Made by a program: the position numbers and the translations under genes. The notes under the pieces are model-generated. The model worked only from the letters and a program-made list of their open reading frames with translations, was not told the DNA's origin and did not search any database. A stretch of 64,000 nt of DNA, taken from contig CBDFLQ010000007.1 in assembly GCA_965249275.1 (NCBI GenBank), forward strand, positions 640,001 through 704,000, read 5' to 3'. This document shows positions 17,067 to 58,718 of this stretch, piece after piece (positions within the stretch are counted from its first letter, which is position 1; every line of letters begins with the position of its first letter). The stretch comes from Dehalococcoidia bacterium. GTDB lineage: Bacteria > Chloroflexota > Dehalococcoidia > Plut-88900.

Positions 17067-17329
17067 GTCATTCTCGGGCTTGACCCGAGAATCCATCCCG
17101 CTGCATAAGACCCTTGCATAACGCTGATGAAGGGGATTGGAGGGGAAGTGTCTCATCCCCTCTCCCTCGATGGGAGAGGGCTAGGGTGAGGGTGATTCCA
17201 TCGGGTGGGGCCGCTCGTGCTGAGGCCCTCGAAGTATGAGCGGGGGGGAGGGCCACTCGTGCTGCCGCAGATGGAACATCCGCCTATGGAGGATCCCGTT
17301 GAGGCGGAAGCCCGCCAAAGTACAAGCGG
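17067..17329 (+). repeat. Mosaic of palindromic repeats
   Basis: Family C GTCATTCTCGGG..CCCGAGAATCC (17067-17099), MITE-like end AGACCCTTGCATAA (17108), family D CCCTCTCCC..GGGAGAGGG..GGTGAGGG (about 17157-17195), family A (17211-17243), and a family A variant with a nested insert (17253-17329). Confidence 0.85.
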
Positions 17330-17342
17330 CGCGGCGCGTAGC

Positions 17343-18122
17343 CTACCGACCCTTGTAGTTCGGCTTCCTCTTCTCCACAAACGCCAGAGGCCCTTCCTTC
17401 GAGTCCTCGGTCTTGTGGATCCGCTGCGACACCAACTCCTCTAACCGGAGCCCCTGCTCCAAAGGCATGTCCATGCCCTGGTAGGCCAGTTGCTTTATCG
17501 CCCGCACCGCCAGTGGCCCGTTCGCGTTGATCTTGTTTGCAAGCTCCTCGGCGGTGGACATCACATCCTCGGGATTCACCACCCGGTTCACGAGACCCAA
17601 GTCGTAGGCCTGCTGAGCGTTGAGCCGATCGCCGGTCAACAGCACCTCCAGCGCCCTGCGGAAGGGTATCGCCCGAGGCAGCCTCTGCGTCCCCCCACCC
17701 CCGGGAATGATCGCTCTAAGAACTTCCGAAAGCCCAAAGTGCGACCTGTCCGAAGCGATAATGAAGTCACACGCCAAGGCCAGTTCCAGGCCCCCGGCAA
17801 GGCAGTAGCCGTCCACAGCTGCGATGACCGGTTTTGTCAGGTCGCTCGTTCGCCAGAACCCCATGGATCGAACCTCGGCCAGCAGTCCCTCGCCCTCTCC
17901 CCTCCTCCTGTCCGACATCTCCTTCAGGTCCGCGCCCGCCGAGAACGCCCTTCCCCCCGCCCCTGTCACGATAGTGCACCAGACATCCGTATCGTTCTCT
18001 ATGTCGTGCCAGGCTGAGTTCAGGCCGTTCACCACTTCAGCGTTCAGGGCATTCATCTTCTCGGGCCTGTTGATGGTAAGGTACGCTATCCGGTCCTTTT
18101 TTTCGAAAATTACCTGCGGCAT
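17343..18122 (-). CDS. Enoyl-CoA hydratase/isomerase family protein
   Basis: INRPEKMNAL, FSAGADLKE, GGLELALACD, FGLSE motifs. Confidence 0.95.
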   Translation of the reverse strand: MPQVIFEKKDRIAYLTINRPEKMNALNAEVVNGLNSAWHDIENDTDVWCTIVTGAGGRAFSAGADLKEMSDRRRGEGEGLLAEVRSMGFWRTSDLTKPVIAAVDGYCLAGGLELALACDFIIASDRSHFGLSEVLRAIIPGGGGTQRLPRAIPFRRALEVLLTGDRLNAQQAYDLGLVNRVVNPEDVMSTAEELANKINANGPLAVRAIKQLAYQGMDMPLEQGLRLEELVSQRIHKTEDSKEGPLAFVEKRKPNYKGR

Positions 18123-18176
18123 GGGTCCCTCCGGGACAACGTACTAATTCCTTGCGGGCATCCGGTGAGCCCCCGA

Positions 18177-18977
18177 CTACCTGCTCTTGAACTCCGGCTG
18201 CCGCTTTTCGGAAAAGGCCAGAGGCCCTTCTACCGCGTCTTCCGTGGTGCCCAGCAGAGTGCTGAACACCTTTTCGAATTGGAAGGCCTGCGGAAGCGTC
18301 AGGTTGTATCCTCGCTGGACGGATTCCTTGATGGCCCGCACGGCCAGAGGCCCGTTCCGGCATATCTTTTCCGCAATCTCCTCCGCCGTCGATATCACCT
18401 GGTCCGCCTCAACTACCCTGTTGATCAGACCCGTCCTGTGCGCCTCTTGCGCATCGATCCTCCCCCCCGTGAGCAGCATCTCCATGGCTATGCACATGGG
18501 CATCGCCCTCGGCAGCCTGTCGACGCCGCCGCCGCTGGGAATGATTCCCCACCGCACTTCCTGCAGGCCGAACTGCGCATGCTCTGCCGCCACCCTTATG
18601 TCACAGCTGAGTGCAATCTCCAACCCTCCCGCTATGCAGAAGCCGTTTATCGCAGCGATGGCGGGTGTTGCAGTGTACATCTCGTACATGTTCGGCATAC
18701 CTGGGGGATTCTCCACCGAGTAGGAACCTCTCCACGCTTCCGGCCCCTCCTTCGCCACGTCCTTGAGGTCCTGCCCCGTGCAGAATGCCCGCTCCCCTGA
18801 CCCCGTGATGATGATCACCCAAACGTCGGGATCGTCGTCCAGCGCTCTCCACGTATTGGCCAGCTGTTGCCAGTGCGCCTCAGTCAGTGCATTCAGGACC
18901 TCTGGCCGGTTCAGGGTTACATAGGCAATGCGGCCCTTCTTCTCAACCAACAAGTGGGACTTTATGTCTTCGCTCAT
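18177..18977 (-). CDS. Enoyl-CoA hydratase/isomerase family protein
   Basis: LNRPEVLNAL, FCTGQDLK, GGLEIALSCD, FGLQE motifs. Confidence 0.95.
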   Translation of the reverse strand: MSEDIKSHLLVEKKGRIAYVTLNRPEVLNALTEAHWQQLANTWRALDDDPDVWVIIITGSGERAFCTGQDLKDVAKEGPEAWRGSYSVENPPGMPNMYEMYTATPAIAAINGFCIAGGLEIALSCDIRVAAEHAQFGLQEVRWGIIPSGGGVDRLPRAMPMCIAMEMLLTGGRIDAQEAHRTGLINRVVEADQVISTAEEIAEKICRNGPLAVRAIKESVQRGYNLTLPQAFQFEKVFSTLLGTTEDAVEGPLAFSEKRQPEFKSR

Positions 18978-18996
18978 GTTCCGTCCCCCGGGTGTC

Positions 18997-20328
18997 TTAA
19001 GCGGTCTTCTCTATTTCCGGCGGCGCATCCAAGCGCAGGTTGGTCGGGGCCTCGTCCAAGTCCGGCATCACTTCCACGGTCTTGCCGTCGGAGGTCAGTA
19101 GCAAGGGCGATCGTTCCCCGGCTATCGCCTTCTCATCAACGTAGCATTTTTCGACATTATCAATCGAGGGCGCCTGGTACATGGCCTCCATCAAGGCCTC
19201 TTCCAGTATCGACCGTAATCCCCGAGCCCCGGTTTTCAGTTTGACCGCCATGTCCGCCGCCCGTTCCAGGGCCGCATCGGTGAATTCCAGATCCACCCCG
19301 TCCAGTTCGAAAATACGATGGTACTGCTTCACCAGTGCGTTCTTCGGCTGGGTCAGCACCGTAATTAAAGACTCCCGGTCCAGGGCCCCGACCGCCGCCA
19401 TCACTGGCAGTCTTCCTATAAGCTCAGGTATCAGCCCAAATTTCAGCAGGTCCTCGGATTCCACGAGGTTCAGTATCTCCTCCGAGCCCTTCAGCCCGCG
19501 GCCCGTAACTGAGTTGAACCCGATGCTCACTACATCTTTGTTGACCCGCTGCTCAATCAACTCTTCCAGCCCGTCGAAAGCGCCGCCACAGACAAACAGA
19601 ATGTTCGATGTGTCCAGCTGAATGTATTCCTGGTGTGGGTGCTTGCGGCCGCCTTGCGGCGGAACATTAGCCACGCACCCTTCAATGACCTTCAGCAGTG
19701 CCTGCTGAACGCCCTCCCCCGACACGTCTCTTGTTATCGAGGGATTGGCGCTCTTGCGCGAAATCTTGTCTATCTCATCGATATATATGATGCCTCGCTG
19801 CGCCCGATTCACGTCATACTCCGCGGCCTGGATGATGCGTAGAAGAATATTCTCCACGTCCTCCCCGACGTAACCGGCCTCCGTCAGCGTCGTTGCATCC
19901 GCAATGGCGAAGGGGACCTTCAGGATCTTGGCGAGGGTCTGGGCCAGAAGGGTCTTGCCGCATCCCGTGGGGCCGACCAGCAGGATGTTGGTCTTCTCCA
20001 GCTCCACGTCCCCATCCGGACCCCTGCTGTTGTTGATGCGCTTGTAGTGGTTGTATACGGCTACGCTAAGGACTTTCTTAGCCCGCGACTGCCCAACTAC
20101 ATACTCGCTGAGCTTATCGTAGAGCTCTCTTGGAGTCGGAAGCTGATCGAGACCCAGGCCATCGTCCGCCGAGACCCGGTCCTCGTCTATCAGCTGCTGG
20201 CAAAGCGCGACACAGTTGTCGCAGATGTAGGTCTGCTCCTGCCCACCTATCAGTTTCTTGACGTCCGGCGGGCTCTTGGAGCAGAAGGAGCAGGCGTATC
20301 TAGTTCTTGCGTCTCTGTCGTCGGGCAT
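18997..20328 (-). CDS. clpX: Clp protease ATP-binding subunit ClpX
   Basis: CSFC..CDNC zinc domain, [26 protein letters not shown] loop. Confidence 0.98.
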
Positions 20329-20357
20329 GTGGCCTCAGTCCGGGCCCGTGGCCCCGC

Positions 20358-20975
20358 TTACTCGGACTTCTTGTCCTTACTCTCCTCTACCGCTCCCACA
20401 ACCTTGTCCACCAACCCGTAATCCCTCGCCTCTTCCGCACTCAGGTAAATGTCCCGGTCGGTGTCCCTGGCAATCTTCTCGATGTCCTGACCCGTGTTCT
20501 CGGACAGAATGCGCCTCAGCTTGTCCTGCAGTCGCAGTATCTCCCTGGCAGCGATCTCAATGTCCGAGGCTTGTCCCTGCGCTCCACCCATCGGCTGGTG
20601 CATGTGTACCGTGGCATTGGGCAGTGCAAACCGCTTGCCCGCTTTTCCTCCGCTCAGCAGTACCGTGCCCATGCTGGCCGTCATGCCGACGCAGATCGTC
20701 GATACGTCACACTGAACAAGCCGCATCGTGTCGTAGATCGCCAGGCCGGCGCTTATCACGCCGCCGGGTGAGTTGATATACAGGTTGATGTCTTTGTCCG
20801 GGTCCTCACGTTCGAGGTACAAGAGCTGCGCCACGATCAGGTTTGCCACGTGATCTGTGATGGGTGTCCCCAGGAATACAATCCGCTCCTTCAGCAGAAG
20901 TGAATATATGTCGAACGCCCTGTCACCTCGGGCGCCGCTCTCGATTATCATCGGTATCACGTTATCCGGTCGCAT
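20358..20975 (-). CDS. clpP: Clp protease proteolytic subunit
   Basis: [29 protein letters not shown] motifs. Confidence 0.98.
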
Positions 20976-22317
20976 CTTTCTCCTCGTTTTCGTTAGCGTT
21001 CTCGATAGAAGACTCCGACCCCGCTACCACGAGCGCCGGGCCCTGCTGAGCGATTTCTTTCATCCGGTCCAGGGCTTTTCTCAGCCTGATCCGATTCCCG
21101 ATGTTTGAGCGAACTTCGTCGCTGCGCAGGCGTTGTATGGCCTCCGGGTCAGTTGCGTCGGCCTGCTCTTCCGCTTGTTTGATCTCCTCGCCTATCTCTT
21201 CGTCGCTTGATTCTACTTCCTCCACCTCTGCCAGCCTGTTCAGAATTAGCGACGTCGTAACCCGGTTCTCCGCCGACTCCCTCCGGTCCTCTCTCAGCTC
21301 CTCCGGAGTCTTACCGATGGCTTTCAGATAGCTTTCGAACTGCAGGCCGCTTTGCGCCAGCGCTCGGGCCTCGTCCATTATTATGTGGTCTATTTCTCTT
21401 TCCGTGAGAATCGGAGGAGCCTCGATTGTGGCATTGCCTTTCAGTGCCTCCATGAGGTCTTCCTCGAACTTGCGGTCCGACAAAGCCTGCGCGTGTTCCT
21501 CCATCGCCTCCGTCATCTTCGCCCTGAAGTCCTCCAGGGTCTCGTACTCCTCATCCAGGCTCTTCACGAAATCGTCGTCAAGTGGAGCTGGCAGTTTGGC
21601 CTTCACTTCTTGCACCGTAACGGCGAAACTGCATTCCTTACCCGCTATTTCAGCCTCCCTGAAGCTGTCCGGCAACGTCAGGTTAAACTCCTTCGATTCA
21701 CCTTTGACCATACCCTCCAGCATCGGGGAGAAACCCGGCACCGGAAAGGCTATTTCTGGGCCAGGGCTATAAGAAGCGCCTGTTTCGCTTATGACGGATT
21801 TGCCATCGACTTTTCCGTCCACGTCGATAGTCAAAAGGTCTCCGTATTCCACCGGCCTGTCCACCTGCTCCCAGGGCGCATTCCTCGTCCTCACCGACTC
21901 CATGGCCTCTTCCACCTGTTCCGGCTTCACCTCCACGGGGTCCTGACTGACCCTGATCGACTTGTAGTCGCCCAATTCCACCGTGGGGGGCAGGGGGACC
22001 GTGGCCTTGATGACCATCGTGTCCCCGGTGTCCACATCCACCTCAGGGGTGTCGATTGCATCCAGCCCCTCGTCTTCAATGGCCTTCTGCACAAGCTCTG
22101 GGGCCAGGTCGTGCATCGCCTCGTGAACTACGGCGTCCTTACCGACAAAGCTCTGCAGGACTGCCCGAGGCGCTTTGCCCGGCCTGAACCCCGGCACCCG
22201 AACGCGCTGAGCCAGGTTCTTGTATGTCTTCTTTAGCGAGTTTTCGAGCTCCTCACCTTCGACTTCAATGGTGAGGAGCATGCGGCTTTTGGGTAGTTTT
22301 TCAGTGGTGACTTTCAA
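20962..22317 (-). CDS. tig: Trigger factor
   Basis: [10 protein letters not shown] signature; tig-clpP-clpX gene order. Confidence 0.96.
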
Positions 22318-22403
22318 GGGAGGAGAACTCTCTTAGCGATGAGGAAAATTGGATTCGACTTCGTGAAAAGTATAGCACACCACGCCCTTACACTAGCGCT
22401 TAT

Positions 22404-24197: not shown

Positions 24198-24323
24198 AGT
24201 CTTTCACCTACCTTGAACATTAGCTGGAGGATTATAGGTTAACCCCCAAAGTGATATCAAACGGCCACTTTCTCCAGGAAACAAACGGGTCGCACTATCA
24301 TCTGCACACACCCTATTTGCAGT

Positions 24324-24351
24324 GTCATCCCGAGGCTCCGCGAGGGATCTA
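24324..24351 (+). repeat. Palindromic repeat family B
   Basis: GTCATCCCGAGGCTCCGCGAGGGATCTA; matches copies at 33879, 36273 and 42153, with a compensatory T-A to C-G stem change. Confidence 0.85.
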
Positions 24352-24481
24352 AAGCGCTTATGTTCCCATCACGCCAAAGTAGCCTTGACACATTCCATCC
24401 TGTCATTACCGTGTAGCACATAGGAATCCACATGTACGAGGGCGTGTCCCCACCCCACGCTCCCCAATTACACACAAAACA

Positions 24482-24512
24482 GGGGTGAAAGCACCCGAGG
24501 CGCTTTCACCCC
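24482..24512 (-). terminator. Intrinsic terminator after the sigma factor gene
   Basis: GGGGTGAAAGC...GCTTTCACCCC stem followed by TGTTTT on the minus strand. Confidence 0.75.
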
Positions 24513-24547
24513 CAACCAAGTCAGGAGCGCTACAGCTGACTAACCCT

Positions 24548-26713: not shown

Positions 26714-26726
26714 CTCGGCAGCGCCT

Positions 26727-33770: not shown

Positions 33771-33878
33771 GGGTTAAGGGTAGCCGCGAGTATATCACCC
33801 CTTTTCCCGCCGTCGTTCCTTTCTGTCGCGTTCCTCATATCCTCCTCACTACCTGGACCCGGAGGCTCCATTTGCAGG

Positions 33879-33916
33879 GTCATTCCGAGGCTCCGCGAGG
33901 AATCTAGGACTTGCCC
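33879..33916 (+). repeat. Palindromic repeat family B (intact copy)
   Basis: GTCATTCCGAGGCTCCGCGAGGAATCTAGGACTTGCCC. Confidence 0.9.
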
Positions 33917-34362: not shown

Positions 34363-37185
34363 ATGATTACCCGCACTGAAAACCTCGCCCGCATCCCAAA
34401 GGTCTACGACCCCACCGAGATCGAAGGCCGAATCTACAAGTTTTGGCTCGATAACGGCTACTTCACCCCAACCATAGAAGAGGGCAAGCAGCCCTTTGTC
34501 ATCATCATGCCGCCGCCCAACGTCACCGGCGAGCTTCACCTCGGCCACGCTCTGACTGCCGCCGCCGAGGACGCTCTCATCCGCTGGCATCGCATGATGG
34601 GCGACCCTACCCTCTGGCTCCCGGGCAGCGACCACGCCGGAATCGCAACTCAGGTCGTAGTCGAAAGACAGCTAGTCAAAGAGGGAAAGGCCCGGCAGGA
34701 AATAGGTCGCGAAGCTTTCGTTGCGAGGGTATGGGAATGGGTACGCCAATACGGTCGCACCATCGCAGAGCAGCACAAGAGACTCGGCGCTTCCTGCGAC
34801 TGGACCCGAGAGCGCTTCACCCTCGACGAAGGCCCCAGCCGCGCCGTACGCACCACTTTCGTCAACCTCTACCGCAAGGGCCTTATATACCGCGGCGAGC
34901 GCATCATCAACTGGTGCCCCCGATGCACGACCGCCCTCTCCGACCTCGAGGTCATCCACCAGGAAGTCGATAGCAATCTCTACTACATCCGCTATCCCCA
35001 CGCCCAGGACCCGACCCGCTACCTCACCGTCGCCACCACCCGTCCCGAGACCCTTCTCGGCGACACCGCTGTCGCCGTCAACCCCGACGACGAACGTTTC
35101 GCCGATTTCGTCGGCCAGAATGTGATCCTCCCCCGTCTAAACCGCCCCATCCCCGTCGTCGCCGACACCGCAGTCGACACAGAGTTCGGCACCGGCGCCG
35201 TCAAAGTAACCCCAGCCCATGATCCCAACGACTTCGATATCGCCCAGCGCCACAACCTTCCCCTAATCACTGTAATCGGGCCCCGGTCTTCAATGACCGA
35301 GGCCGCTGGGCCCCAATACACCGGCTTGACCGTCGCAGAGTGCCGAGCCCGCATCCTCCAGGACCTCGAATCCGATGGTCTGCTCGCAAAGGCCGAACCC
35401 CTCACCCACTCCGTTGGGCACTGCCAGCGCTGCAACACAGTCGTCGAACCTATGGCCGGTAAGCAGTGGTTCGTCAAGGTCGGCCCCATGGCTGAGGCCG
35501 CCGCCGCCGCCGTCACCGAGGGCCGTATCCGCATAGTCCCAGACCGCTTCACCAAGGTCTATTTGAACTGGATGGACAACATCCGAGACTGGTGCATCAG
35601 CCGCCAGCTCTGGTGGGGCCATCGTATCCCCGTCTGGTATTGTGATCGGTGCGAACACCTCACCGTCGCTCTGGATGACCCAACAGCCTGCGAGGGTTGT
35701 GGCTCGACCGATATTCGCCAGGACCCCGACGTCCTGGACACATGGTTCAGCTCCGGCCTCTGGCCCCATTCCACCCTCGGCTGGCCCGACAACACCGACG
35801 ACCTCCGCTATTTCTACCCCGGCGCAGTCCTCGAAACAGGCTACGATATCCTCTTCTTCTGGGTCGCCCGCATGATCATGCTCGGCATCCAGAACATGGG
35901 CGACATACCCTTCCACACTGTATATCTCCACGGCCTCATCCAGGACGAACACGGCGAGAAGATGAGTAAGGTGAAGGGCAACGTACTCAATCCCCTCGAA
36001 ATCATCGACGAGCACGGCGCCGACGCCCTCCGCTTTGCCCTCACCGTCGGCACCGCCCCCGGCAACGACAGCCGGCTCAGCGAGGCCAAGATTCGGTCCA
36101 GCCGCAACTTCACCAACAAGCTCTGGAACGCCTCCCGCTACGTCATCTCCATCCTCGACCAAGCCCCATCATCCCCCCCCGTCATTCCTGCGGAGGCAGG
36201 CCGAAGGTCCGCCGAGGAGGAAATCCATCCCCCCCAACCCTCTACTTTATCATCCCAAGACCAGGCAAATATGTCATTCCGACGCTCCGCGAGGAATCTA
36301 GGACTTGCCCACTCAACTTCCTCATCGCAATCCCCTCCCTCCGATTCCCTCCCCATCGAAGACCGCTGGATCCTGAGCCGCTTCCAACGCACCGTCGAGG
36401 ACGTCACCCGCGCCCTCAACGGCTTCCGTCTCGGCGACGCCCAGGAGTACGTCCACGACTTCATCTGGAACGAGTTCTGCGACTGGTATATCGAAATAGC
36501 CAAGATTCGCCTCCGGGACCTTTCCGACTCCCCCTCCCCCGCCCCCGTCCTGGCTCAGGTCCTCGACGGCGCTCTTCGCCTACTCCACCCCTTCATGCCC
36601 TTCATAACCGAGGAAATCTGGCAAACCCTCGTCCAACGAATGCCCGCATCCGGTGATCAGACCGGCTCCATAATGGTCGCCCCATACCCCACCCCCGACC
36701 CCGCCGCCATCGACTCGGAAGCCGAGGAGTGGGCCGGCCTTCTAATGGCCCTCGTCCGCGGTGTACGCAACGTCCGCGCAGAGCGCAAAGTCGAGGCAAG
36801 TAAGAAAATCCTGGCCGTCCTGTTGGATGGCGAGACCCTTGGACCCGGAGGCCAATCTTTCTTAGAAACCCTCGCCCAATGCTCCGTCGAGGCACACGCC
36901 GGCAACACCTCTCAACCAGAGAACTCCATCATGGTCGTCGAAAAGGCCACCCGAGTCTTCCTCCCCCTCGCCGGCCTCTTCGACTTCGCCGTTGAACGAA
37001 ATCGCCTTGAATCAGCCCTTGGGGAATTGGGCAAGAGGATCGCCCAGATCGAGTCCCGCCTTGAGAACAAGCAATTCCTCTCCAAAGCTCCCCCCGACGT
37101 TGTCGAAAAGGAACGCACCCGCCTCTCCGGCTGGCGAGAAGAGGAAGCCAACTTCCTCCACCGCCTCGGTGAACTGGGTCAATAG
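34363..37185 (+). CDS. valS: Valine--tRNA ligase with a repeat-derived in-frame insertion
   Basis: PPPNVTGELHLGH, WCISRQLWWGH, KMSK, C-terminal coiled coil. Confidence 0.98.
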   Translation: MITRTENLARIPKVYDPTEIEGRIYKFWLDNGYFTPTIEEGKQPFVIIMPPPNVTGELHLGHALTAAAEDALIRWHRMMGDPTLWLPGSDHAGIATQVVVERQLVKEGKARQEIGREAFVARVWEWVRQYGRTIAEQHKRLGASCDWTRERFTLDEGPSRAVRTTFVNLYRKGLIYRGERIINWCPRCTTALSDLEVIHQEVDSNLYYIRYPHAQDPTRYLTVATTRPETLLGDTAVAVNPDDERFADFVGQNVILPRLNRPIPVVADTAVDTEFGTGAVKVTPAHDPNDFDIAQRHNLPLITVIGPRSSMTEAAGPQYTGLTVAECRARILQDLESDGLLAKAEPLTHSVGHCQRCNTVVEPMAGKQWFVKVGPMAEAAAAAVTEGRIRIVPDRFTKVYLNWMDNIRDWCISRQLWWGHRIPVWYCDRCEHLTVALDDPTACEGCGSTDIRQDPDVLDTWFSSGLWPHSTLGWPDNTDDLRYFYPGAVLETGYDILFFWVARMIMLGIQNMGDIPFHTVYLHGLIQDEHGEKMSKVKGNVLNPLEIIDEHGADALRFALTVGTAPGNDSRLSEAKIRSSRNFTNKLWNASRYVISILDQAPSSPPVIPAEAGRRSAEEEIHPPQPSTLSSQDQANMSFRRSARNLGLAHSTSSSQSPPSDSLPIEDRWILSRFQRTVEDVTRALNGFRLGDAQEYVHDFIWNEFCDWYIEIAKIRLRDLSDSPSPAPVLAQVLDGALRLLHPFMPFITEEIWQTLVQRMPASGDQTGSIMVAPYPTPDPAAIDSEAEEWAGLLMALVRGVRNVRAERKVEASKKILAVLLDGETLGPGGQSFLETLAQCSVEAHAGNTSQPENSIMVVEKATRVFLPLAGLFDFAVERNRLESALGELGKRIAQIESRLENKQFLSKAPPDVVEKERTRLSGWREEEANFLHRLGELGQ
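36181..36315 (+). repeat. Family C repeat (with 21-nt insert) and family B repeat inside valS
   Basis: GTCATTCCTGCGGAGGCAGG[36201-36221]AATCCATCCC and GTCATTCCGACGCTCCGCGAGGAATCTAGGACTTGCCCACTCA (36273-36315). Confidence 0.9.
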
Positions 37186-37202
37186 CAGTCCACCAAGAGA
37201 CC

Positions 37203-37299
37203 GTTATTCCTGCGGAGGCAGGAATCCAGGGGAAGTGTGGGGTTGGGTCCGATCCTCGGGGCGGGGCCGCTCGTGCTGAGGCTCTCGAAGTATGAGCGG
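37203..37299 (+). repeat. Family C (37203-37228) and family A (37267-37299) repeats
   Basis: GTTATTCCTGCGGAGGCAGGAATCCA; CCGCTCGTGCTGAGGCTCTCGAAGTATGAGCGG. Confidence 0.9.
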
Positions 37300-37405
37300 G
37301 GGGCGGAGGAAGGATTAGACAAGCGGCCACTTTGCATAGTATGTCTACTCATCGCAATATGCTTCCACATCAAGACTTGTCCAATGCCCCCATAGGGCAT
37401 AGACC

Positions 37406-41995: not shown

Positions 41996-42019
41996 AGCCC
42001 CCCCATCCCCAGGGTGGGG

Positions 42020-42095
42020 CCGCTCACCATGTCGTAGATCCGCCGAGGCGGGAGCTTGCTGCAAGTCCGCTGAGGCGGATCGAAGGGTCGAGCGG
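42020..42095 (+). repeat. Family A-like repeat carrying two 21-nt inserts
   Basis: CCGCTCACCATG[42032-42052]AGCTTG[42059-42079]TCGAAGGGTCGAGCGG. Confidence 0.8.
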
Positions 42096-42181
42096 GGGCA
42101 CGCACTGCCAATCCGTCACGTACACACAACCCCACCCAACTCTTTGCACATTGTCATTCCGAGGCTCCGCGAGGAATCTAG

Positions 42182-43377
42182 GAAACCTCTGAACAAGTCT
42201 AAGTGCATAGGTAATAGGTAAGATAAGGAGAGTAAGGCCAAAGCTGAGGTGAGATTTGATGGAGCAGCCGACATTTGCAGACTTGGAATACGAGGGCAAG
42301 AAGCGAAAGACCCGCCGGGAGATATTTCTGGAGCGGATGGAGGACCTGGTTCCATGGGGAAAGTTAGAGGAGCGAATCCGGCCCTACTATTCCAGGGCGG
42401 GCCGTGGACGGAGGCCCTACGAGTTGTCGGTGATGCTGCGGATACACTGCGTGCAGCTGTTCTACAACCTGAGCGATCCGGGCATGGAGGACATGCTCTA
42501 CGAGGTGGAGTCGGTGAGGCGGTTCGCAGGTCTGAGGCTGTCCGGCCCCTTGCCTGACGAGACTACGATACTGAACTTCCGCCATCTGCTGGAAGAGCAG
42601 GAGTTGGGTCGGGGGCTGTTCGAGGAGATCAACCGTCATCTGGAGTCTCGGGGACTGAGGCTCAGGGAGGGTACGATTGTGGATGCGAGCATCATCGAGG
42701 CGCCGGCGTCTACGAAGAACCGTGCTGGAGAGCGAGACCCCGATATGCACCAGGTGAAGAAGGGGAAGGAGTGGCACTTCGGTATGAAAGTGCACATTGG
42801 TGCAGACGCTGACACGGGGGTGGTGCACAGTATGAGTACGACAGCTGCGAACGTGCATGACATGACGGAGGCGCACCGGCTGCTGCATGGAGGGGAGAGG
42901 CGAGTGTGGGGAGATGCGGAATATCAGGGAGTGGAGAAGCGGGCGGAGAATCGGGATATGGATGTGGAGTGGCGGGTGGCGATGAGACCTGGACGGCGTC
43001 GGAAACTGAGGGCGGGGAGCTGCGAGGCCTTGGCGGAGAAGAGCAAATCATCCATCAGGGCTAAGGTGGAGCATCCGTTCCTGTACGTGAAACGGCACTT
43101 CGGCTACGCCAAGGTCCGCTACAGGGGCTTGTACAAGAACACGCAACGGGTGGCGATGCTGCTGGGGCTGGCCAACTTGGTAAGGGCCGAGCGCCACTTA
43201 GCGGTGTGACGGAGGAGCAGTGTGGTCAAATCCGGGTCGATGGTGACTGGATGCCCTGACAGGCCAGAACATAGGATGCAAATAAGCCACCGAGACGCAA
43301 CATTACGACCCAACCTCTCCCCAAAACTCCATGCAAGACAACCTAAGCTGGTTTACAGTGAGTTGTTCAGAGCTTCC
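42182..43377 (+). mobile_element. IS5 family insertion sequence (1196 bp) inserted in a family B repeat
   Basis: Terminal inverted repeats GAAACCTCTGAACAA / TTGTTCAGAGCTTCC (13/15); CTAG target duplication at 42178-42181 and 43378-43381; the joined flanks rebuild repeat B. Confidence 0.95.
42259..43209 (+). CDS. IS5 family DDE transposase
   Basis: LSDPGMED, PDETTILNFRH, VDASII, WHFGMKVH, WGD, RAKVEHPF. Confidence 0.97.
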   Translation: MEQPTFADLEYEGKKRKTRREIFLERMEDLVPWGKLEERIRPYYSRAGRGRRPYELSVMLRIHCVQLFYNLSDPGMEDMLYEVESVRRFAGLRLSGPLPDETTILNFRHLLEEQELGRGLFEEINRHLESRGLRLREGTIVDASIIEAPASTKNRAGERDPDMHQVKKGKEWHFGMKVHIGADADTGVVHSMSTTAANVHDMTEAHRLLHGGERRVWGDAEYQGVEKRAENRDMDVEWRVAMRPGRRRKLRAGSCEALAEKSKSSIRAKVEHPFLYVKRHFGYAKVRYRGLYKNTQRVAMLLGLANLVRAERHLAV

Positions 43378-43384
43378 CTAGGAC

Positions 43385-44113
43385 TTGCCCACTCACCTAC
43401 CGCATTCCCAATCCTCCCCTCTTAACACTCTCCTCCGCCAGGCTCTCGCCGAGCACGCAGACCCCGCGAAGGCCGAGGGCATGAAACGCTACATGAAGTC
43501 GGAGATGCCCTACCGCGGCGTCCAGACGCCCCTGTTGCGCCGACTCTGCAAAGATGTATTTCGCCGCTACCCCATCCCGGACAAGGAAGATTGGCAAGCC
43601 GCGGTGCTGGACTTGTGGAGAAACGCCTCCTATCGCGAGGAACGCTACGCGGCTATAGATCTCGCCGGGGCTAAACGCTACGAACCTTTCCGCACCCTCG
43701 ACACCCAAACCCTTTGCGAGGAGATGATAGTAACAGGCGCCTGGTGGGACTACGTTGACTCCATAGCCTCCCACCGCCTACGAGAGCTACTTGAGAAGTA
43801 CCCCGCCGAGATGTCTCAGGAAATGAGAGCATGGAGCCGTGACCGCGATATGTGGAAGCGCCGCTCTTCAATAATCTGCCAACTCAACCGCAAGTCCCAC
43901 ACCGACCTCGCCCTCCTCTTCGACTGCATCGACCCCAACCTCTCCGACCCCGACTTCTTCATCCGCAAGGGCATCGGCTGGGCCCTTCGCTCTTTGGCCT
44001 GGACGAACCTGGATACGATCGAAGATTACATAGCCCGCAACCGAGACCGTATAAGCCCCCTAAGCCGCCGCGAGGCTTTAAAGAACGCCCAGAAGATTAG
44101 ACATGCCTCTTAA
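43385..44113 (+). CDS. DNA alkylation repair protein (AlkD-like)
   Basis: YMKS, WWDYVD, FFIRKGIGWALR, LSRREALK; the TTG start lies in a repeat remnant. Confidence 0.88.
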   Translation: MPTHLPHSQSSPLNTLLRQALAEHADPAKAEGMKRYMKSEMPYRGVQTPLLRRLCKDVFRRYPIPDKEDWQAAVLDLWRNASYREERYAAIDLAGAKRYEPFRTLDTQTLCEEMIVTGAWWDYVDSIASHRLRELLEKYPAEMSQEMRAWSRDRDMWKRRSSIICQLNRKSHTDLALLFDCIDPNLSDPDFFIRKGIGWALRSLAWTNLDTIEDYIARNRDRISPLSRREALKNAQKIRHAS

Positions 44114-44128: not shown

Positions 44129-44273
44129 GAGACCTTTTACAACGTGCAATGAAGGGGCCGGGGCCGCTCGTGCTGTCGTAGATCCGCCGAGGCTGGAGGC
44201 TCTCGAAGTATGAGCGGGGAGGAGGTCATCTGGGTGACACAACAGGTGCGATTTGTAGCTATGCAAGGGTCGC
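44129..44273 (+). mobile_element. Degenerate MITE-like element with a family A core and a 21-nt insert
   Basis: Ends GAGACCTTTTACAA / CTATGCAAGGGTCGC; aligns along its length with 58591-58718. Confidence 0.6.
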
Positions 44274-49511: not shown

Positions 49512-49521
49512 CGGGCGCCCT

Positions 49522-50572: not shown

Positions 50573-51715
50573 TCATCCCCGCCCCTCGAGAAGCACTTCC
50601 CTCAGCCGTGCTATCACCTTCTCCACGTCTTCGTCTTCCAGGTTGGTGGGGATAACCGTCAGGTCGTCGGGGTTGCCCAGGTCGCTCAGGTATATCGGCT
50701 CCTCACCCGACGCCATTTCCGCAAAGACTTCGCTGGGAGTCGGCCCCATCCAGTCTCTGGTGAAGTTTATCCGCGCCGATGGAACAGTGTAGTCGTAGCC
50801 ATCGTGCTCCAGTTGCAACTTCAGCCCCGGGACCTCGATCAACGCGTCGACCACCTGCTGCATCATGGCCGTGTACCGGGCGTTTTCCTCTTCTTCGTCT
50901 TCTTCCACGAATATTTGCAGCGCTGTCAGCAACCCGATAACTTCCTCCTTCGCCACCTTCATCGACCTGCCGATAAACTGGTGGGGACTCGCATTCGCAA
51001 ACGCCGCCTCGATGAGATCGGCCCGACCACACAATATCCCCGACCCCTGCGGCCCCTTCACCCCCTTGCCTCCACTGAAGATCACCATGTCTGCGCCTTC
51101 CGAGATGAACTTCCTCAGATTCTCCCGCGGCGGCAGCATCGACGCCCCGTCCACAATCACCGGCACTCCCCTGGCGTGGGCTATCTCGCACACTTGCTCC
51201 AACGGAATCGCCCGCCGAGACACGAAGTTGGCGTGCAGGTAGGACACCGCTGCCGTCTTTTCCGTAAACGCCGCCTCCAGCTGCCACGGTGCACACCGAC
51301 GCCCGTCCCCTATCTCTACCATCTTCGCTCCCGCCGCCCTGTACGCCTGGTCGTAGGGAAACCGGTGACACCGCTGGATAATGAATTCGTTCTTCATTCC
51401 TTCGGTATCCGGCAGACGTGCCATCTTCTTCATGTCCGACCCTGCGATGCACGCAGCCGCCTGAAGCACGAGCCCCGCTGCGGCGCCGTTGGTTACCAGT
51501 CCCGACTCCGCCCCTGTGAGCTCCGCTATTACCTTCCCAGCCTGCATGTTCAGCTCATCTACGTTCACCAGGACCCGTGCTGCCTGGGCCATTATCTGCA
51601 GGGCCTCAGGCCTTGTCTTGGTCCCCCCAAACAGGGTCGTCGTACCGGCGGCGTTGATGATCGGCTTAACCCCGAGTGAACGGTACACCTGGGACGGATC
51701 GTGGCTGGAAGTCAT
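50573..51715 (-). CDS. SelA-like PLP-dependent enzyme (DgaE-related)
   Basis: IINAAGTTT, VTNGAAAG, IVDGAS, FSGGKGVKGPQ, GRSMKV. Confidence 0.85.
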   Translation of the reverse strand: MTSSHDPSQVYRSLGVKPIINAAGTTTLFGGTKTRPEALQIMAQAARVLVNVDELNMQAGKVIAELTGAESGLVTNGAAAGLVLQAAACIAGSDMKKMARLPDTEGMKNEFIIQRCHRFPYDQAYRAAGAKMVEIGDGRRCAPWQLEAAFTEKTAAVSYLHANFVSRRAIPLEQVCEIAHARGVPVIVDGASMLPPRENLRKFISEGADMVIFSGGKGVKGPQGSGILCGRADLIEAAFANASPHQFIGRSMKVAKEEVIGLLTALQIFVEEDEEEENARYTAMMQQVVDALIEVPGLKLQLEHDGYDYTVPSARINFTRDWMGPTPSEVFAEMASGEEPIYLSDLGNPDDLTVIPTNLEDEDVEKVIARLREVLLEGRG

Positions 51716-51797
51716 ATCTTTAAGCTCTCCTATACCTGTGGCCGGGATACCATGGAAAATGCGTAACCCGTCGATGATATCACAGACAAATAAAGAG

Positions 51798-51824
51798 CCC
51801 GGCGGTTAAATTGCCCGCCGGGCC
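51798..51824 (-). terminator. Intrinsic terminator after the Clp ATPase gene
   Basis: GCCCGGCGG...CCGCCGGGC stem followed by TCTTTATTT on the minus strand. Confidence 0.75.
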
Positions 51825-51850
51825 CATTCTCTCTTCCTGGAACTGTGGTC

Positions 51851-54298: not shown

Positions 54299-54669
54299 TC
54301 TTCACCCCCTGAATCCCGACCGTCTGTTTTTCTTGCCGAGCGGTCGCCCAGGCCCCGAGACCCGGTCATCAGCCGATTCAGTTCCTCTTTTACCGCATTC
54401 AGCTCGTTCTGCATGTCCAGCATTCGCCTGGACATCCTCATAATCACGTCAACTCCCGCCAGGTTCACCCCCAGGTCTTCGATCAATGACCGTATTCTCT
54501 GAAGGTGTGCCACGTCCTTAGCCGAGTAAAACCGCATGTTCCCCCCCGACCTGGACGGCTTGATAAGTCCGGCTCTTTCGTAGTAGCGCAACGTCTGCAC
54601 GTGTACGCCCACCATCCGCGCCGCTATGCTTATCACGTAGCGCGGCTCCGATTCGTCATGGAGGTTCAC
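54292..54669 (-). CDS. hspR: MerR-family heat-shock repressor HspR
   Basis: [29 protein letters not shown]; follows the J-domain gene. Confidence 0.9.
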
Positions 54670-55589
54670 GCTGCCCCCTTCCCGCCTGCTAGTTCTTTCA
54701 ATTGCTCTACTAGTTTCGACTCTGCCTCCGACAACTCCGTCGGCAACGTTACCTTCACTGTCGCGTACGCATCCCCATCTCCCGACTGCCCATAAATGGG
54801 CATTCCCCTGCCTTTCAACCGGAAACTCTGTCCGTTCTGTGTCCCTTTGGGAAGTTTCAGAGCAACCGAGCCTTTTAAGGTCTGTACAGGAATCTCCCCG
54901 CCCAGCATCGCGTCGTATAGAGAGACCGGAGTCTCGACGTGAACATCGTTCCCGACTCTATTGAACCGGTCGTGCGGTAATACGTTGATCGAAAAAATAA
55001 TCTCTCCACCCCCCACCCCGGGACGCCCCTTGTCCGGGTCCACCGACATCTGAAAACCGGTCCACACCCCCGGCGGCACCTTTACCTCCAGCCTACGTTT
55101 CCTGCCATCGGCCCCCGACATCTCAACAAGCCTGGTAGTTCCCCGATAAGCCTCTTCCAGGGTCACATCCAACTTGTGTTCTCTGGGAGCAGCGTGTACC
55201 CGAGTGAAAGGAGCCCCTCCGGCAGGTCCTCTGCCTCTGCGTCCCATGAAACTCTGGAGTATCTCGTCCAGCGGCTCCCCCCCGAACCCGAAAGCCGATG
55301 GCCCGCCGTCGCCTTTAGAGAAAGACCACGTCCGGGTTACCCCATCGCCGTTGCCCCAGCCCCCACCTTTGAACCTCCGTCCTCCTTCATCATAGTCTCG
55401 GCGCCCCTCCGGGTCGGAAAGCGTCTGGTACGCCTCGTTCACTTCCTTGAACTTCTCCGCCGCATCCGCCATACCAGGGTTCACGTCCGGGTGGTACTTC
55501 CGAGCCAGCTTCCTGAAAGCGCGCCGAAGCTCCTCTTGCGAGGCATCCTTCTTGATGCCTAGGACATCGTAATAGCTCCGTTTCGCCAT
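54666..55589 (-). CDS. J-domain protein without zinc finger (CbpA-like)
   Basis: YYDVLG, HPD, G/F-rich region, DnaJ C-terminal domain. Confidence 0.93.
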
Positions 55590-55623
55590 CTGGTGTGTTC
55601 CTTGCCTTTTCCAGTGCAGCTAT

Positions 55624-55738
55624 ATGTTAAGTCCTGTCACTTTCTCTGTCAACGTCTTTATCAACTACTTAGTAAGCACCCTTGACAATGCCTTAGTTAA
55701 TTTCTATGATATCACCATAGTTGATAACGTCATTGTAG
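55624..55738. promoter_or_regulatory. Divergent sigma-70 promoters with an inverted operator pair
   Basis: Plus strand TTGACA(55682)-N17-TATGAT; minus strand TTGACA(55652)-N17-TAACAT; TTATCAACTA / TAGTTGATAA inverted repeat. Confidence 0.75.
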
Positions 55739-55752
55739 GAAGGAGGTTTCAA

Positions 55753-55884
55753 ATGGCCGTCAAGAGAGCCGGACGCAATCAGGTCACAGCGCAGTCCCCC
55801 GGGACCCGAGGGCCTCTCACCACACTCCTCGGCATTCTGGGAGCCGTTGCTCAGACCACCGGGATCGGGATCAGATTCTTTTAG
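55753..55884 (+). CDS. Putative 43-aa small protein upstream of hsp20
   Basis: AAGGAGGT RBS; MAVKRAGRNQVTAQSPGTRGPLTTLLGILGAVAQTTGIGIRFF*; first ORF after a near-consensus promoter. Confidence 0.6.
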   Translation: MAVKRAGRNQVTAQSPGTRGPLTTLLGILGAVAQTTGIGIRFF

Positions 55885-55957
55885 GAAATGCGGTGGGGGG
55901 CCCGTGGCCCCCCATCAGCCAGGAAAAGCTAAGTAGCACTCAAAAGGAGGAACAAGC

Positions 55958-56413
55958 ATGAACGCTATAGTACGACGGGACCCGCTTGCAGGAATGAACG
56001 GCATGAAGAGGTTTATGGATCGATTCTTCGATGACCGATTCTTCGGAATCCACAGGTACTCCGCCCCGACTCATCAGGCCAACCTCATGCCCATCGACGT
56101 TACCACCGATGACAAGCAGGTTGTCATCCAGGCCTCCCTCCCCGGCCTCAAACCCGAGGATGTCAACGTCTCGGTAGAAGACAACCGCCTCACCATTGAA
56201 GGTGAGACCCATTCCACCGAGGAGAACGAGAACGAAAGGTACGTCATCCGGGAGCGGCGCTCCGGGGCATTCCATAGGAGCCTGACCCTGCCCCAGGGGC
56301 TCGAAGAGGACAATATCGAGGCCCGCTTCGAAAACGGCGTCCTCACCCTCACCGTCCCCCGTACCGTCGAGGTCAAGCCCAAGGCCAAGACCATCGAGAT
56401 CAAGACCGGCTAG
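55958..56413 (+). CDS. Hsp20/alpha-crystallin small heat-shock protein
   Basis: LPGLKPEDV, ERRSGAFHRSLTLP, ARFENGVLTL. Confidence 0.96.
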   Translation: MNAIVRRDPLAGMNGMKRFMDRFFDDRFFGIHRYSAPTHQANLMPIDVTTDDKQVVIQASLPGLKPEDVNVSVEDNRLTIEGETHSTEENENERYVIRERRSGAFHRSLTLPQGLEEDNIEARFENGVLTLTVPRTVEVKPKAKTIEIKTG

Positions 56414-56439
56414 CCCCCGGACCAATCTCGCCCCCATGC

Positions 56440-56475
56440 TCACGGGCAGGTTCTAAGCCTGCCCGTGACTCTTTT
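56440..56475 (+). terminator. Intrinsic terminator after hsp20
   Basis: TCACGGGCAGG-loop-CCTGCCCGTGA followed by CTCTTTT. Confidence 0.85.
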
Positions 56476-56477
56476 CC

Positions 56478-56506
56478 TTGACATACCCCCTACCCCTTGC
56501 TAGCAT
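56478..56506 (+). promoter_or_regulatory. Sigma-70 promoter for thrC-NIL-moaD
   Basis: TTGACA-N17-TAGCAT with extended -10 TG. Confidence 0.7.
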
Positions 56507-56610
56507 CTAGCACGGATTTCACCTATAAATCAGAGACCGCTTGGAAAGCGTCCGCTCCTACGCCCATCAGCCACTGACTCGCCCACCGGCCCGTAAAACG
56601 GTAATCCAAC

Positions 56611-57861
56611 ATGTCTAACGCCATCGCGCTAAGATGCAAAGAGTGCGGCAAGGAATACCCCCTTGACCCCATGAACGTATGCGAGTGGTGCTTCGGCCCC
56701 GTCGAAGTCGTATACGACTATGCAGCCGTCGCTCGAACTTTCAATAGAGAGAGCGTGGAGGCCGGGCCACTCTCCATGTGGCGCTACAAGGACCTCCTGC
56801 CCGTCAACGGCAACATCGTAGATTTGGGCACCGGCTATACACCCCTCCTGAAAGCCGACAACCTGGGTAGGGAGCTGGGCCTCGACAACCTCTACATCAA
56901 GAACGACTGCGGGAACCCTACCCACTCCTTCAAGGACAGGGTCGTCGGCGTCGCCTCCACCAAGGCTCGGGAGTTCGGCTTCGACACCATTGCCTGCGCC
57001 TCTACCGGCAACCTCGCCGGCAGTGTCGCCGCCCACGCCGCCCGAGCCGGCCTGAAAGCCTACGTCTTCATCCCCGCCGACCTCGAAGTAGGCAAGGTAG
57101 TGTCCGCTGCCATTTATGGCCCCACCCTAGTCGCCGTCAAGGGCAACTATGATGAGGTCAACAGGCTCTGCAGTGAGCTCGCCGACAAATACCAATGGGC
57201 CTTCGCCAATATAAATATGCGCCCCTACTACTCCGAGGGCTCCAAGACCCTCGGATTCGAAGTAGTAGAGCAGCTCGGCTGGCGCTGCCCCGACTGGGCC
57301 GTGGTACCCGCCGCTTCCGGCTCTCTCTATACCAAGATCTGGAAGGGCATGAACGAGCTCGCCGAGGTCGGCCTCACCGACGTACCCCACACCAAGATGG
57401 CCGTCGCCCAGGCTCGAGGCTGCTCTCCCATCATCACCGCCTACGAAGAAAACCGCATGGACATCAAGCCCGTGCGGCCCAATACCCTTGCCAAATCCCT
57501 CGCAATCGGCAATCCCGCCGACGGCTACTATGCCCTCAAGACCATCAAGGAGACCGGCGGTGCGGGCGTCGCTTCCACCGACCCAGAAGTCGTCGAAGGC
57601 ATGTCCCTCCTTGGCCGCACCGAGGGCATCTTCACCGAGACTGCCGGCGGCGTCACCATCGCCGGCCTAAAGAAGCTTGCCGCCTCCGGCACAATCAAAC
57701 GCGGAGATCTAACCGTAGCCTATATTACCGGCTCGGGCCTCAAGACCCAGGAGCCCGTACAATCCCTCATCGACCCCGTTACCATAGATCCAACTATCAT
57801 CTCTTTCGAGGACGCCCTGGAGGCCCGTGGGAACGGCATCCGCGCTACTGCTAACGCCTAG
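56611..57861 (+). CDS. thrC: Threonine synthase-like PLP enzyme with N-terminal zinc ribbon
   Basis: CKEC..CEWC, NPTHSFKDR, CASTGNLA, EGSKT, ITGSGLK. Confidence 0.88.
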   Translation: MSNAIALRCKECGKEYPLDPMNVCEWCFGPVEVVYDYAAVARTFNRESVEAGPLSMWRYKDLLPVNGNIVDLGTGYTPLLKADNLGRELGLDNLYIKNDCGNPTHSFKDRVVGVASTKAREFGFDTIACASTGNLAGSVAAHAARAGLKAYVFIPADLEVGKVVSAAIYGPTLVAVKGNYDEVNRLCSELADKYQWAFANINMRPYYSEGSKTLGFEVVEQLGWRCPDWAVVPAASGSLYTKIWKGMNELAEVGLTDVPHTKMAVAQARGCSPIITAYEENRMDIKPVRPNTLAKSLAIGNPADGYYALKTIKETGGAGVASTDPEVVEGMSLLGRTEGIFTETAGGVTIAGLKKLAASGTIKRGDLTVAYITGSGLKTQEPVQSLIDPVTIDPTIISFEDALEARGNGIRATANA

Positions 57862-57882
57862 CCGACCCCAAGAGGACTCGAC

Positions 57883-58125
57883 ATGGTAAAGATGAAAGCC
57901 AGGTTCACCTTCCCCACGGACCTCGTCACCGAGCCCGTTATATACGGCCTTGGCAAGAATTTCGACGTCATTACCAACATCCGCCGCGCTGACGTCACCG
58001 AGACCCAAGGCTGGGTCATCCTCGAACTTGAGGGCGAAGAAGAGCAGATTAATCGCGGCCTCGCCTGGGTCTCCGAGACCGGCGTCCGAGTCGACCCCAT
58101 AGTCGGCGATATTGTAGAAGGTTAA
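57883..58125 (+). CDS. Stand-alone NIL domain protein
   Basis: FTFP..EPVIY..TNIRRADV..GWVILELEG. Confidence 0.88.
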   Translation: MVKMKARFTFPTDLVTEPVIYGLGKNFDVITNIRRADVTETQGWVILELEGEEEQINRGLAWVSETGVRVDPIVGDIVEG

Positions 58126-58183
58126 TTTAGCCCCTATCCTGACGACATTAGATTCGCGGAATAGTACTTAGGAGGTCCCTTAA

Positions 58184-58459
58184 ATGAGCGTCAGCCTTAA
58201 GATCCCTACGCCCCTTCGCCGTATGACCAACGGAGAGAGCAGTGCCACCGTTGAAGGGACGAACATCATGGAGTGTATAGACTCGCTCGACGCACTTCAC
58301 CCGGGGATCAAGGCCCGACTCGTCGCCGACAGCGGGGAACTCCACCGATTCGTCAACGTCTACGTCAACGGCGAGGACATTCGCTTCAAGGACGGCATCA
58401 CCACCGCCGTCAACAGCGGCGACGAGGTCAGCATCGTCCCTGCCGTCGCAGGCGGCTAG
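58184..58459 (+). CDS. MoaD/ThiS family sulfur carrier protein
   Basis: IPTPLR, FVNVYVNGEDIR, C-terminal PAVAGG. Confidence 0.93.
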   Translation: MSVSLKIPTPLRRMTNGESSATVEGTNIMECIDSLDALHPGIKARLVADSGELHRFVNVYVNGEDIRFKDGITTAVNSGDEVSIVPAVAGG

Positions 58460-58483
58460 ACCCCCGGCCTCCGACCCCATTCC

Positions 58484-58718
58484 GTCATTCCTGCCCCCGC
58501 AGGAATCCATCCCTCTCAGTTCTTCTTGGGTGACGCCTTTGCCTAACCCTATCGGAGAGCTTGGCGGGCGTCCTACATCCCCTACTGGTCGAGACATTTG
58601 CGTAACCAGTGTTGGAGGGGCGGGGGCCGCTCGTGCTGAGGCTCTCGAAGTATGAGCGGGGGGGGTTAGGTGATCTGGATAGCACTAAAGATGCAATCTG
58701 AAGTCACAAAAAGGTGCC
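58484..58718 (+). repeat. Repeat mosaic: family C (58484-58513), degenerate hairpin (58532-58576), MITE-like element (58591-58718) with family A core (58627-58659)
   Basis: GTCATTCCTGCCCCCGCAGGAATCCATCCC; GACGCC..GGCGTCCTAC; GAGACATTTGCGTAA..; CCGCTCGTGCTGAGGCTCTCGAAGTATGAGCGG. Confidence 0.8.

Follow-up and report, generated by a model that had tools for sequence, protein, structure and literature searches.

The stretch of DNA analysed here, referred to as the window, comprises 64,000 nucleotides (positions 640001-704000 of contig C7) of the genome of a Dehalococcoidia bacterium, labelled G000, which measures 2.90 Mb in 7 contigs, has 59% G+C and is 87% complete. Features are given below in window positions. 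The window is strewn with short hairpin repeats resembling repetitive extragenic palindromic (REP) sequences, and at least five families of them, named A, A2, B, C and D, exist in this Dehalococcoidia genus. They occupy the spacers between genes and, in valyl-tRNA synthetase (ValRS), one surface loop. Every one of these families is polarised by replication strand: its orientation flips at the origin and terminus of replication and ignores transcription.

Family A consists of the frame GGGGCCGCTC ... GAGCGGGG enclosing a 21-nt loop, and A2 is a longer variant of it ending in TCGAAGGGTCGAGCGG. Families B and C have in common a head (C/T)GTC, a stem that opens with ATTCC or ATCCC, and a tail ATC(C/T)A. 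Family D is built of CCCCTCTCCC-loop-GGGAGAGGG followed by a G-rich tail. The stems occur in compensatory variants (ATTCC/GGAAT and ATCCC/GGGAT, as well as many inner stems), which shows that pairing is maintained.

All units of the window lie on the + strand. The first group combines a family C variant (17066..17099; head CGTC, 9-bp stem ATTCTCGGG/CCCGAGAAT, loop CTTGA, tail CCATCC), a family D unit (17155..17195; hairpin CCCCTCTCCC-loop-GGGAGAGGG with the G-rich tail CTAGGGTGAGGGTGA), a family A unit (17203..17249; GGGGCCGCTC ... TCGAAGTATGAGCGGGG) and a degenerate A-frame (17252..17329; CCACTCGTGCTG ... AAGTACAAGCGG) with about 50 nt nested in its loop. A family B unit at 24323..24352 has the stem ATCCC/GGGAT, compensatory to ATTCC/GGAAT, and is followed by a degenerate CGTC-type unit (24400..24430; CTGTCATTACC...GGAATCCA) and by another B unit with the long tail CTAGGACTT (33878..33912). 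Two units lie within the valS gene and are described below. Next come a C unit (37201..37229; head CCGTT, 8-bp stem ATTCCTGC/GCAGGAAT, loop GGAG, tail CCA) and an A unit (37258..37303). An A2 unit (42016..42100; CCGCTC ... TCGAAGGGTCGAGCGG) contains two small inner hairpins, the first of them GTAG-headed. The B unit beside it (42152..42182) has its tail split at CTAG by an IS5-like insertion sequence (IS) with a DDE_Tnp_1 domain (42178..43381, + strand), and the rest of the tail is found at 43378-43396. The last units are an A unit with a GTAG-headed hairpin of about 23 nt nested in its loop (44160..44221), a C unit (58482..58511; stem ATTCCTGC/GCAGGAAT, loop CCCC, tail CCATCC) and a further A unit (58618..58663).

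The IS5-like element sits in the CTAG of the B tail here and at no fewer than three other B copies, in either orientation (copies on C5, C6 and C7 among the genome set). It is missing from the 42178 site in three relatives (G002, G003 and G005).

Most units of the window are arranged in co-oriented mosaics: C-D-A-A' at 17066-17329, C-B at 36179-36306, C-A at 37201-37303, A2-B at 42016-42182 and a second C-A at 58482-58663. The sequence between C and A, which often occur together, is not conserved. The C tail ATCCATCCCC and the D flank ATCCCATCCCC exemplify the C-rich/G-rich flanks that modules share and the overlap of their ends, and one module junction carries a 6-nt TCCATC repeat. These features are compatible with microhomology-guided joining.

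The preliminary description of this stretch had presented families A, B and C as solo units of a single orientation, whatever the direction of the flanking genes. The 14 copies it listed are all present where it placed them, each on the + strand, and its statement that reverse-complement copies are lacking is confirmed by strict patterns, which match 11 times on + and 0 times on - in the window; the only other matches on - are palindromic cores that match themselves again at the same loci. Its independence from flanking genes is likewise borne out, by repeats that point the same way beside + and - genes in the window and by balanced gene contexts across the genome. The term solo is right in that inverted doublets are absent throughout the genome, and wrong in that most window units belong to co-oriented mosaics. 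The D unit at 17155 and the small nested hairpins at 42034, 44178 and 36200 had been overlooked. A common orientation across unrelated families is an arbitrary label; the meaningful feature is co-orientation within each family, B and C sharing head and tail.

In the window, the small GTAG-headed hairpins occur within units of A, A2 and C. A hairpin of this kind, about 22 nt long, is found in the loop of A, in the interior of A2 and in the 3' stem of C or B, and in two species (G007 and G004, loci L089/L088) it occupies the same position within family B. It may target the host hairpin, or the composite unit itself may spread. Another rearrangement is seen in one B copy of G000 (C5, - strand, offset 54348), in which head and tail have one orientation and the inner 12 nt are reverse-complemented. 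Flipped loops (CTTGAC vs GTCAAG) are common in another genome, G011, and such flips suggest hairpin-mediated loop inversion.

The valS open reading frame (34363..37185, + strand, 940 aa) holds a C unit (36179..36232), whose 3' stem is interrupted by about 21 nested nt, and a B unit (36272..36306), both in frame and translated. They encode approximately aa 606-650, between the catalytic domain, which ends at aa 572, and the anticodon-binding domain, which starts at aa 667. Homologues of this ValRS measure about 880-893 aa, and the additional residues are inserted at window positions of about 36166-36360. In eight genomes, G000 and seven relatives, the site contains differing combinations of repeats, always in the same orientation and with the frame open: B alone in G001 and G008, B with extra upstream sequence in G005, C+B in G000, G003 and G007, two C units in G004, and D in place of B in G002. 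The valS site is a repeat hot spot. In-frame insertion into a conserved protein gene is typical of Rickettsia palindromic elements (RPE), which are likewise translated hairpins. The repeats described here differ from RPE in belonging to another phylum, in residing in a genome of free-living type and in being mostly intergenic; moreover, the polarity and the repeated occupation of one and the same valS site in eight species are features described only here.

The GC skew of the window is -0.173. For the whole genome, copies were counted in four regex-defined groups, and 22 copies at |skew| <0.03 were set aside (A 4, A2 4, B+C 11, D 3). The C-rich strand carries 281 of 300 copies. The bias is seen in family A (61/64), in A2 (53/55), in B and C taken together (133/145) and in D (34/36), with Fisher p values from 2e-8 to 9e-26 for the families. 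The same polarity was obtained by independent blastn mapping and by a de novo survey of repeated 12-mers. Among pairs of any family less than 150 bp apart, 63 are co-oriented and 2 opposed, and opposed pairs of the same family at this distance number 0 genome-wide. All 10 B/C pairs within 150 bp have the same orientation, so the head-to-head dimers typical of other REPs with this type of head are not found here.

The flanking genes do not account for this order. B and C copies lie in 46 sense-tandem, 38 antisense-tandem, 34 convergent and 30 divergent contexts, and the numbers of sense and antisense tandem contexts are 24 vs 13 for A, 17 vs 16 for A2 and 10 vs 10 for D. About 52% of the crude gene calls are co-oriented with the skew. 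As a control, the 1204-bp IS5-like element, with 11 genome copies at 99.5% identity or more, is divided 6 vs 5 relative to the skew, and 12-mers derived from IS show no strand bias in this genome.

The GC skew of G000 is unusually strong, reaching 0.2 in 20-kb bins, and patchy, with |skew| <0.06 in about a quarter of the bins; an AT skew is absent. Replication-linked mutation bias would produce a strand-wide skew at third codon positions. The third-position GC skew shifts in the same way for genes on both strands, and the skew thus belongs to the chromosome strand rather than to transcription. Orthologous core regions can show strong skew in one species and be flat in another.

The origin could be placed in a relative of the same genus, G001, which is assembled as one contig of 3,260,108 bases; in G000, a search by simple consensus found no clusters of DnaA boxes. 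In G001, dnaA lies at 3,183,760, and within 10 kb of it the skew turns from - to +, climbing between 3.17 and 3.19 Mb from about -0.12 to about +0.12; the reverse switch falls at about 1.44-1.52 Mb, roughly half a chromosome away. The units found left of dnaA (families A, A2, C and D) are on the + strand and those right of it (families A, B, C and D) on the - strand. Families A, A2, B, C and D flip both here and at the second skew switch. Counted by replichore, B is distributed 38-/6+ vs 11-/45+ and A 16-/2+ vs 6-/29+. Neighbouring A and B copies within 20 kb agree in 45 of 48 cases, which indicates that the exceptions cluster in patches, and these patches have inverted skew, e.g., +0.12 at 2.96 Mb. 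The 19 copies of G001 identical to the query are all concordant with the replichore. As the preliminary description had expected, orientation follows GC skew in G000 and flips at the origin and terminus in G001; the replichores of G001 do not hold equal numbers on both strands, and orientation in G000 does not follow transcription.

The leading strand is usually G-rich. Since the position of dnaA supports this rule here, the C-rich strand on which the repeats are read, with the head CGTC or TGTC 5' of the hairpin, is the nascent lagging strand, which corresponds to the leading-strand template.

Family B is present in 8 of 8 other genomes of the genus, with 35-100 copies each, and among 22 other genera only one yielded a match, a single one with 3 mismatches. 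The dominant B subfamily differs between species of the genus. In 20 sampled 20-kb regions of G008, the C-rich strand holds 21 of the 22 copies of the dominant subfamily and 30 of the 32 B-type copies overall; this subfamily represents a recent burst that is already polarised. A generic CGTC pattern matches 28 of 81 Dehalococcoidia genomes, in 24 of 68 genera, with zero matches of the reversed control. G059, a genome of another Dehalococcoidia family (one contig, 2.45 Mb), contains 46-/11+ copies below 1.2 Mb and 5-/35+ above, with 17 strand runs vs 49.4 expected (z = -6.6). Its copies are on the C-rich strand in 78 of 79 cases at |skew| >=0.05 and in 85 of 101 at >=0.02, the misses falling in two regions with skew near -0.03. 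Blocks are also evident in G011, with 21 strand runs vs 40.8 expected. Three genomes of other Dehalococcoidia genera (G019, G018 and G086) carry the CGTC superfamily as inverted heterodimers about 14 nt apart, which makes the solo polarised state lineage-specific. G059 also has tandem arrays of 4-7 co-oriented CGTC units (C1:105273-105501, 613347-613638 and 2012280-2012538) with periods of 34, about 89 and 78 bp.

The CGTC-tagged REP superfamily was described by Di Nocera et al. (2013, PMC3733652) and includes dRS3 of Neisseria and RPE-4 and RPE-6 of Rickettsia. According to the available part of that paper, these REPs are mostly head-to-head dimers without an associated transposase and occur in five phyla, Chloroflexi not among them. 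Judged by their sequences, families B and C fit this superfamily, C according to its published definition and B in part. An unpaired 5' CGTC, TGTC or CCTC is recognised as the foot tetranucleotide in C (CCGTCATTCC) and in the B consensus (CTGTCATTCC). The C variants ATTCCTGC/GCAGGAAT, ATTCCGGC/GCCGGAAT and ATTCCCGA/TCGGGAAT form stems of 8-9 bp that open with an A-T and a T-A pair, whereas the B stem opens with AT and has only 5 perfect pairs (ATTCC/GGAAT or ATCCC/GGGAT). The loops GGAG or CCCC and the tail CCA of family C agree with the 4-5-nt loop and CCA of the superfamily, other C variants having 6-nt loops, whereas family B departs from it with a 12-nt interior and a tail CTA/CTG (CTAGG/CTGGGG). 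The numerous stem and loop variants with compensatory changes, the in-frame intragenic copies and the lack of an associated transposase are further likenesses to CGTC REPs. The repeats differ from the published ones in their occurrence in Chloroflexota and in being single or combined in co-oriented mosaics instead of head-to-head dimers.

The available text of PMC3733652 contains 0 occurrences each of 'leading strand' and 'lagging' and does not mention replication-strand polarity, and a full-text search of a limited literature library found no report of replication-polarised REP-like repeats. Replication polarity has been described for IS200/IS605 and other IS families (PMC3971601, PMC6006769, as far as their available parts show), a fork-based model has been proposed for REPs (PMC3333891), and one Bordetella repeat is explicitly stated not to be co-oriented (PMC3110155). 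The novelty here thus lies in CGTC-type REPs that are solo, polarised and apparently enzyme-less.

Comparison with better-known systems reveals partial similarities. Like REP, BIME and REPIN elements mobilised by RAYT, the repeats are short intergenic hairpins with a conserved foot tetranucleotide, form clustered mosaics of subfamilies, serve as targets of IS insertion and have a single-strand mechanism at the fork proposed for them. In contrast to those elements, they have no RAYT in the 14 genomes searched, and thus no RAYT flanked by cognate REPs as in a REPtron; they do not form inverted doublets, their head is CGTC instead of GTAG/GTGG, with GTAG confined to the small nested hairpins, and their replication polarity is strict. 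With IS200/IS605 and its transposase-less derivatives they share an orientation bias that is tied to replication and flips genome-wide between replichores, and hairpins by which these elements are recognised. For no other mobile DNA described so far has polarity been accounted for by single strands exposed at the fork ('peel and paste' on the lagging-strand template). Unlike the IS200/IS605 derivatives, which have hairpins at left and right ends and depend on a trans-acting TnpA with a Y1 domain, the repeats are single 25-90-nt hairpins without distinct ends, have neither TnpA nor TnpB, and carry their tagged strand on the leading-strand template.

Taken together, the insertion event itself seems to fix the orientation, through a single-strand step coupled to the fork. 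The catalyst of this step is not a recognisable Y1 HUH transposase, and the reading is given slightly better than an even chance. Insertion-set orientation is favoured because the recent burst is polarised, because the 19 identical copies of G001 are all concordant and because the valS site is occupied in the same direction in eight species. An existing unit would be copied as a single strand that has the polarity of one of the replication strands, and this copy would be pasted into single-stranded DNA at the fork, so that daughters would inherit the polarity. The catalyst could be an unrecognised nuclease or recombinase, or the host's own replication and repair, e.g., through template switching in which microhomology between the C-rich/G-rich flanks shared by modules guides nascent pieces of the lagging strand. 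In a more specific version, regarded as speculative and rather unlikely, CGTC-type and companion repeats would multiply without a dedicated transposase: nascent lagging-strand pieces comprising a unit and its C-rich flanks would pair wrongly with G-rich microhomologies on a different lagging-strand template that is exposed, where they would be sealed in. If true, this would be a transposase-free, replication-driven copy-and-paste that preserves strand polarity automatically, and it would explain why CGTC repeats have never been tied to an enzyme across many phyla.

Several observations weigh against orientation being set at insertion by such a step. No catalyst was found: a six-frame search for Y1_Tnp gave 0 matches in the 9 genus genomes, of which six are single contigs, and 0 above the cut-off in 5 further CGTC-rich Dehalococcoidia genomes, with matches in 6 of 14 control genomes as positive control. 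TnpB, IS110 and RVT_1 were not found in G000, nor was Y2_Tnp, which was sought there without a positive control. Of the earlier proposal that the repeats spread by a replication-strand-specific and probably single-strand mechanism, the polarity is upheld by skew and origin, and the suggested HUH component finds no support in the gene content. According to the available parts of PMC3333891 and PMC6006769, the active strand in the IS608 paradigm is the lagging-strand template; if CGTC acted as a 5' guide in the manner of GTAG in REPs, the tagged strand would lie on the leading-strand template, opposite to IS608. The comparison of eight window loci across up to seven relatives, and of four G008 loci with G006, G004 and G007, revealed neither a clean filled/empty junction nor a target duplication, the spacers differing by whole mosaics. 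G000 itself is a 7-contig, 87%-complete assembly with patchy skew, and the direction of replication is deduced from skew and the position of dnaA. Finally, the number of repeats per 100 kb climbs with |skew|, from 4.2 to 21.2 (rho 0.46), a trend that orientation-dependent loss also predicts.

Such loss is the essence of an alternative that retains a small but real chance: both orientations would arise, and copies whose more deleterious or deletion-prone hairpin lies on the lagging-strand template would be eliminated, either through slipped-strand deletion between short direct repeats at their flanks or through purifying selection, so that one orientation alone remains. The density trend fits loss in segments that changed replication strand, and a D unit is missing in G000 exactly between 11-nt direct repeats, ATCCCNTCCCC, which flank D in four relatives. 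Trinh and Sinden reportedly observed in 1991 that asymmetric palindromes in E. coli plasmids are deleted in an orientation-dependent manner on the lagging-strand template. By DNA folding, the family A hairpin is 2.4-2.75 kcal/mol stabler as read, which places the stabler form on the leading-strand template, and in A2 and B the difference has the same sign (0.2-1.0 kcal/mol); C and D, however, have a small asymmetry of opposite sign (0.2-0.75 kcal/mol) and yet are equally polarised. With these mixed signs from the folding of both strands, hairpin stability asymmetry was rejected as a universal cause. Orientation-dependent loss is further opposed by patches of G001 that run against their replichore (about 2.94-3.02 Mb), where near-consensus copies still follow the old skew and wrong-way copies thus persist, and by the recent subfamily burst, already polarised in 21 of 22 copies. 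A polarity of 92-96% among intergenic hairpins of 25-45 nt would also demand very strong selection. The setting of orientation at insertion meets competition, too, from a classical REP origin, in which a RAYT or IS200-type Y1 enzyme acting on the lagging-strand template made the copies and has since been lost, was left unassembled or is too divergent for the Pfam model, so that the repeats would be polarised fossils. The hairpin and tetranucleotide-head anatomy resembles that of REPs, the nested hairpins are GTAG-headed, and Y1 elements are the one class with documented replication polarity (PMC3971601, PMC6006769, in their available parts). A Y1-like fragment was also noticed in G019, at a contig end and below threshold (21.4 bits, cut-off 23). 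Such an origin is nevertheless judged unlikely: Y1 is missing from all nine genus genomes and from the five others above the cut-off, with the controls detected, and species-specific subfamilies and a turnover of spacers at 92-98% identity imply activity after the species split. Nor has a transposase been tied to CGTC repeats in any phylum, as far as the accessible text of PMC3733652 goes.

The remaining alternatives attribute the orientation to function. Polar signals selected by the host, used in a direction-dependent manner in replication or segregation, e.g., as single-strand priming or restart sites or as KOPS/Chi-like guides, would suit a polarity as strong as that of known architecture-imparting motifs, its same sign across two Dehalococcoidia families and the enrichment of copies at the strongest skew. 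This is quite improbable, since recognition would have to extend to five unrelated sequences. Copy numbers differ 3-fold between genomes of the genus, and the generic CGTC pattern finds no match in 53 of 81 genomes of the class; other genera carry the superfamily as inverted doublets, in which polarity is void, and orthologous spacers exchange one family for another freely. A KOPS/Chi-like motif within the repeats was sought and rejected, as no strongly polarised octamer outside the repeats matches them; octamer biases outside the repeats, with a maximal |z| of 7.3 and ratios of up to about 5.5-fold, are consistent with codon-level effects. Elements linked to transcription (terminators, mRNA-stabilising hairpins or small RNAs), the orientation of which would follow genes that are co-oriented in the window by chance, could explain why many units lie just 3' of stop codons, and REPs elsewhere act on mRNA according to the accessible part of PMC3733652. 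This explanation has almost nothing left of its probability, given the roughly equal sense and antisense tandem numbers reported above, the occupation of divergent promoter regions and the uniform direction of the window repeats beside + and - genes; an Rfam scan of the window matched tRNA only, and nothing overlaps the repeats.

CGTC-tagged REPs, among them the Neisseria dRS3 and the Rickettsia RPEs, are widespread and have neither a known mobilising enzyme nor an accepted mechanism of spread. A replication polarity of about 94% in lineages without a Y1 transposase offers a concrete mechanistic clue, namely that the copying step sees the fork. The clue is strengthened by the same sign in two Dehalococcoidia families and by its presence in a recent burst, and it can be tested on any closed genome with such repeats. 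In practical terms, the repeats work as a strand compass by which inversions and the limits of replichores can be recognised in draft genomes.

Other features of the window deserve mention. A tRNA gene at 8375-8463 (Rfam, 52.7 bits) overlaps the start of the crude dprA call (8425-9633), and the true start of dprA is probably located further downstream than 8425. Three tandem Amidohydro_2 paralogues with a period of about 1.2 kb, 87-90% identical over 300-nt stretches, occupy 2286-5790 beside luciferase-like monooxygenase genes. At 58824-58870, the region of a ThiS-like gene is separated from a luciferase-like gene by a perfect inverted repeat of 22 bp, the arms of which are 3 nt apart; this repeat is kept in G002, G003 and G005 and is probably a bidirectional terminator.

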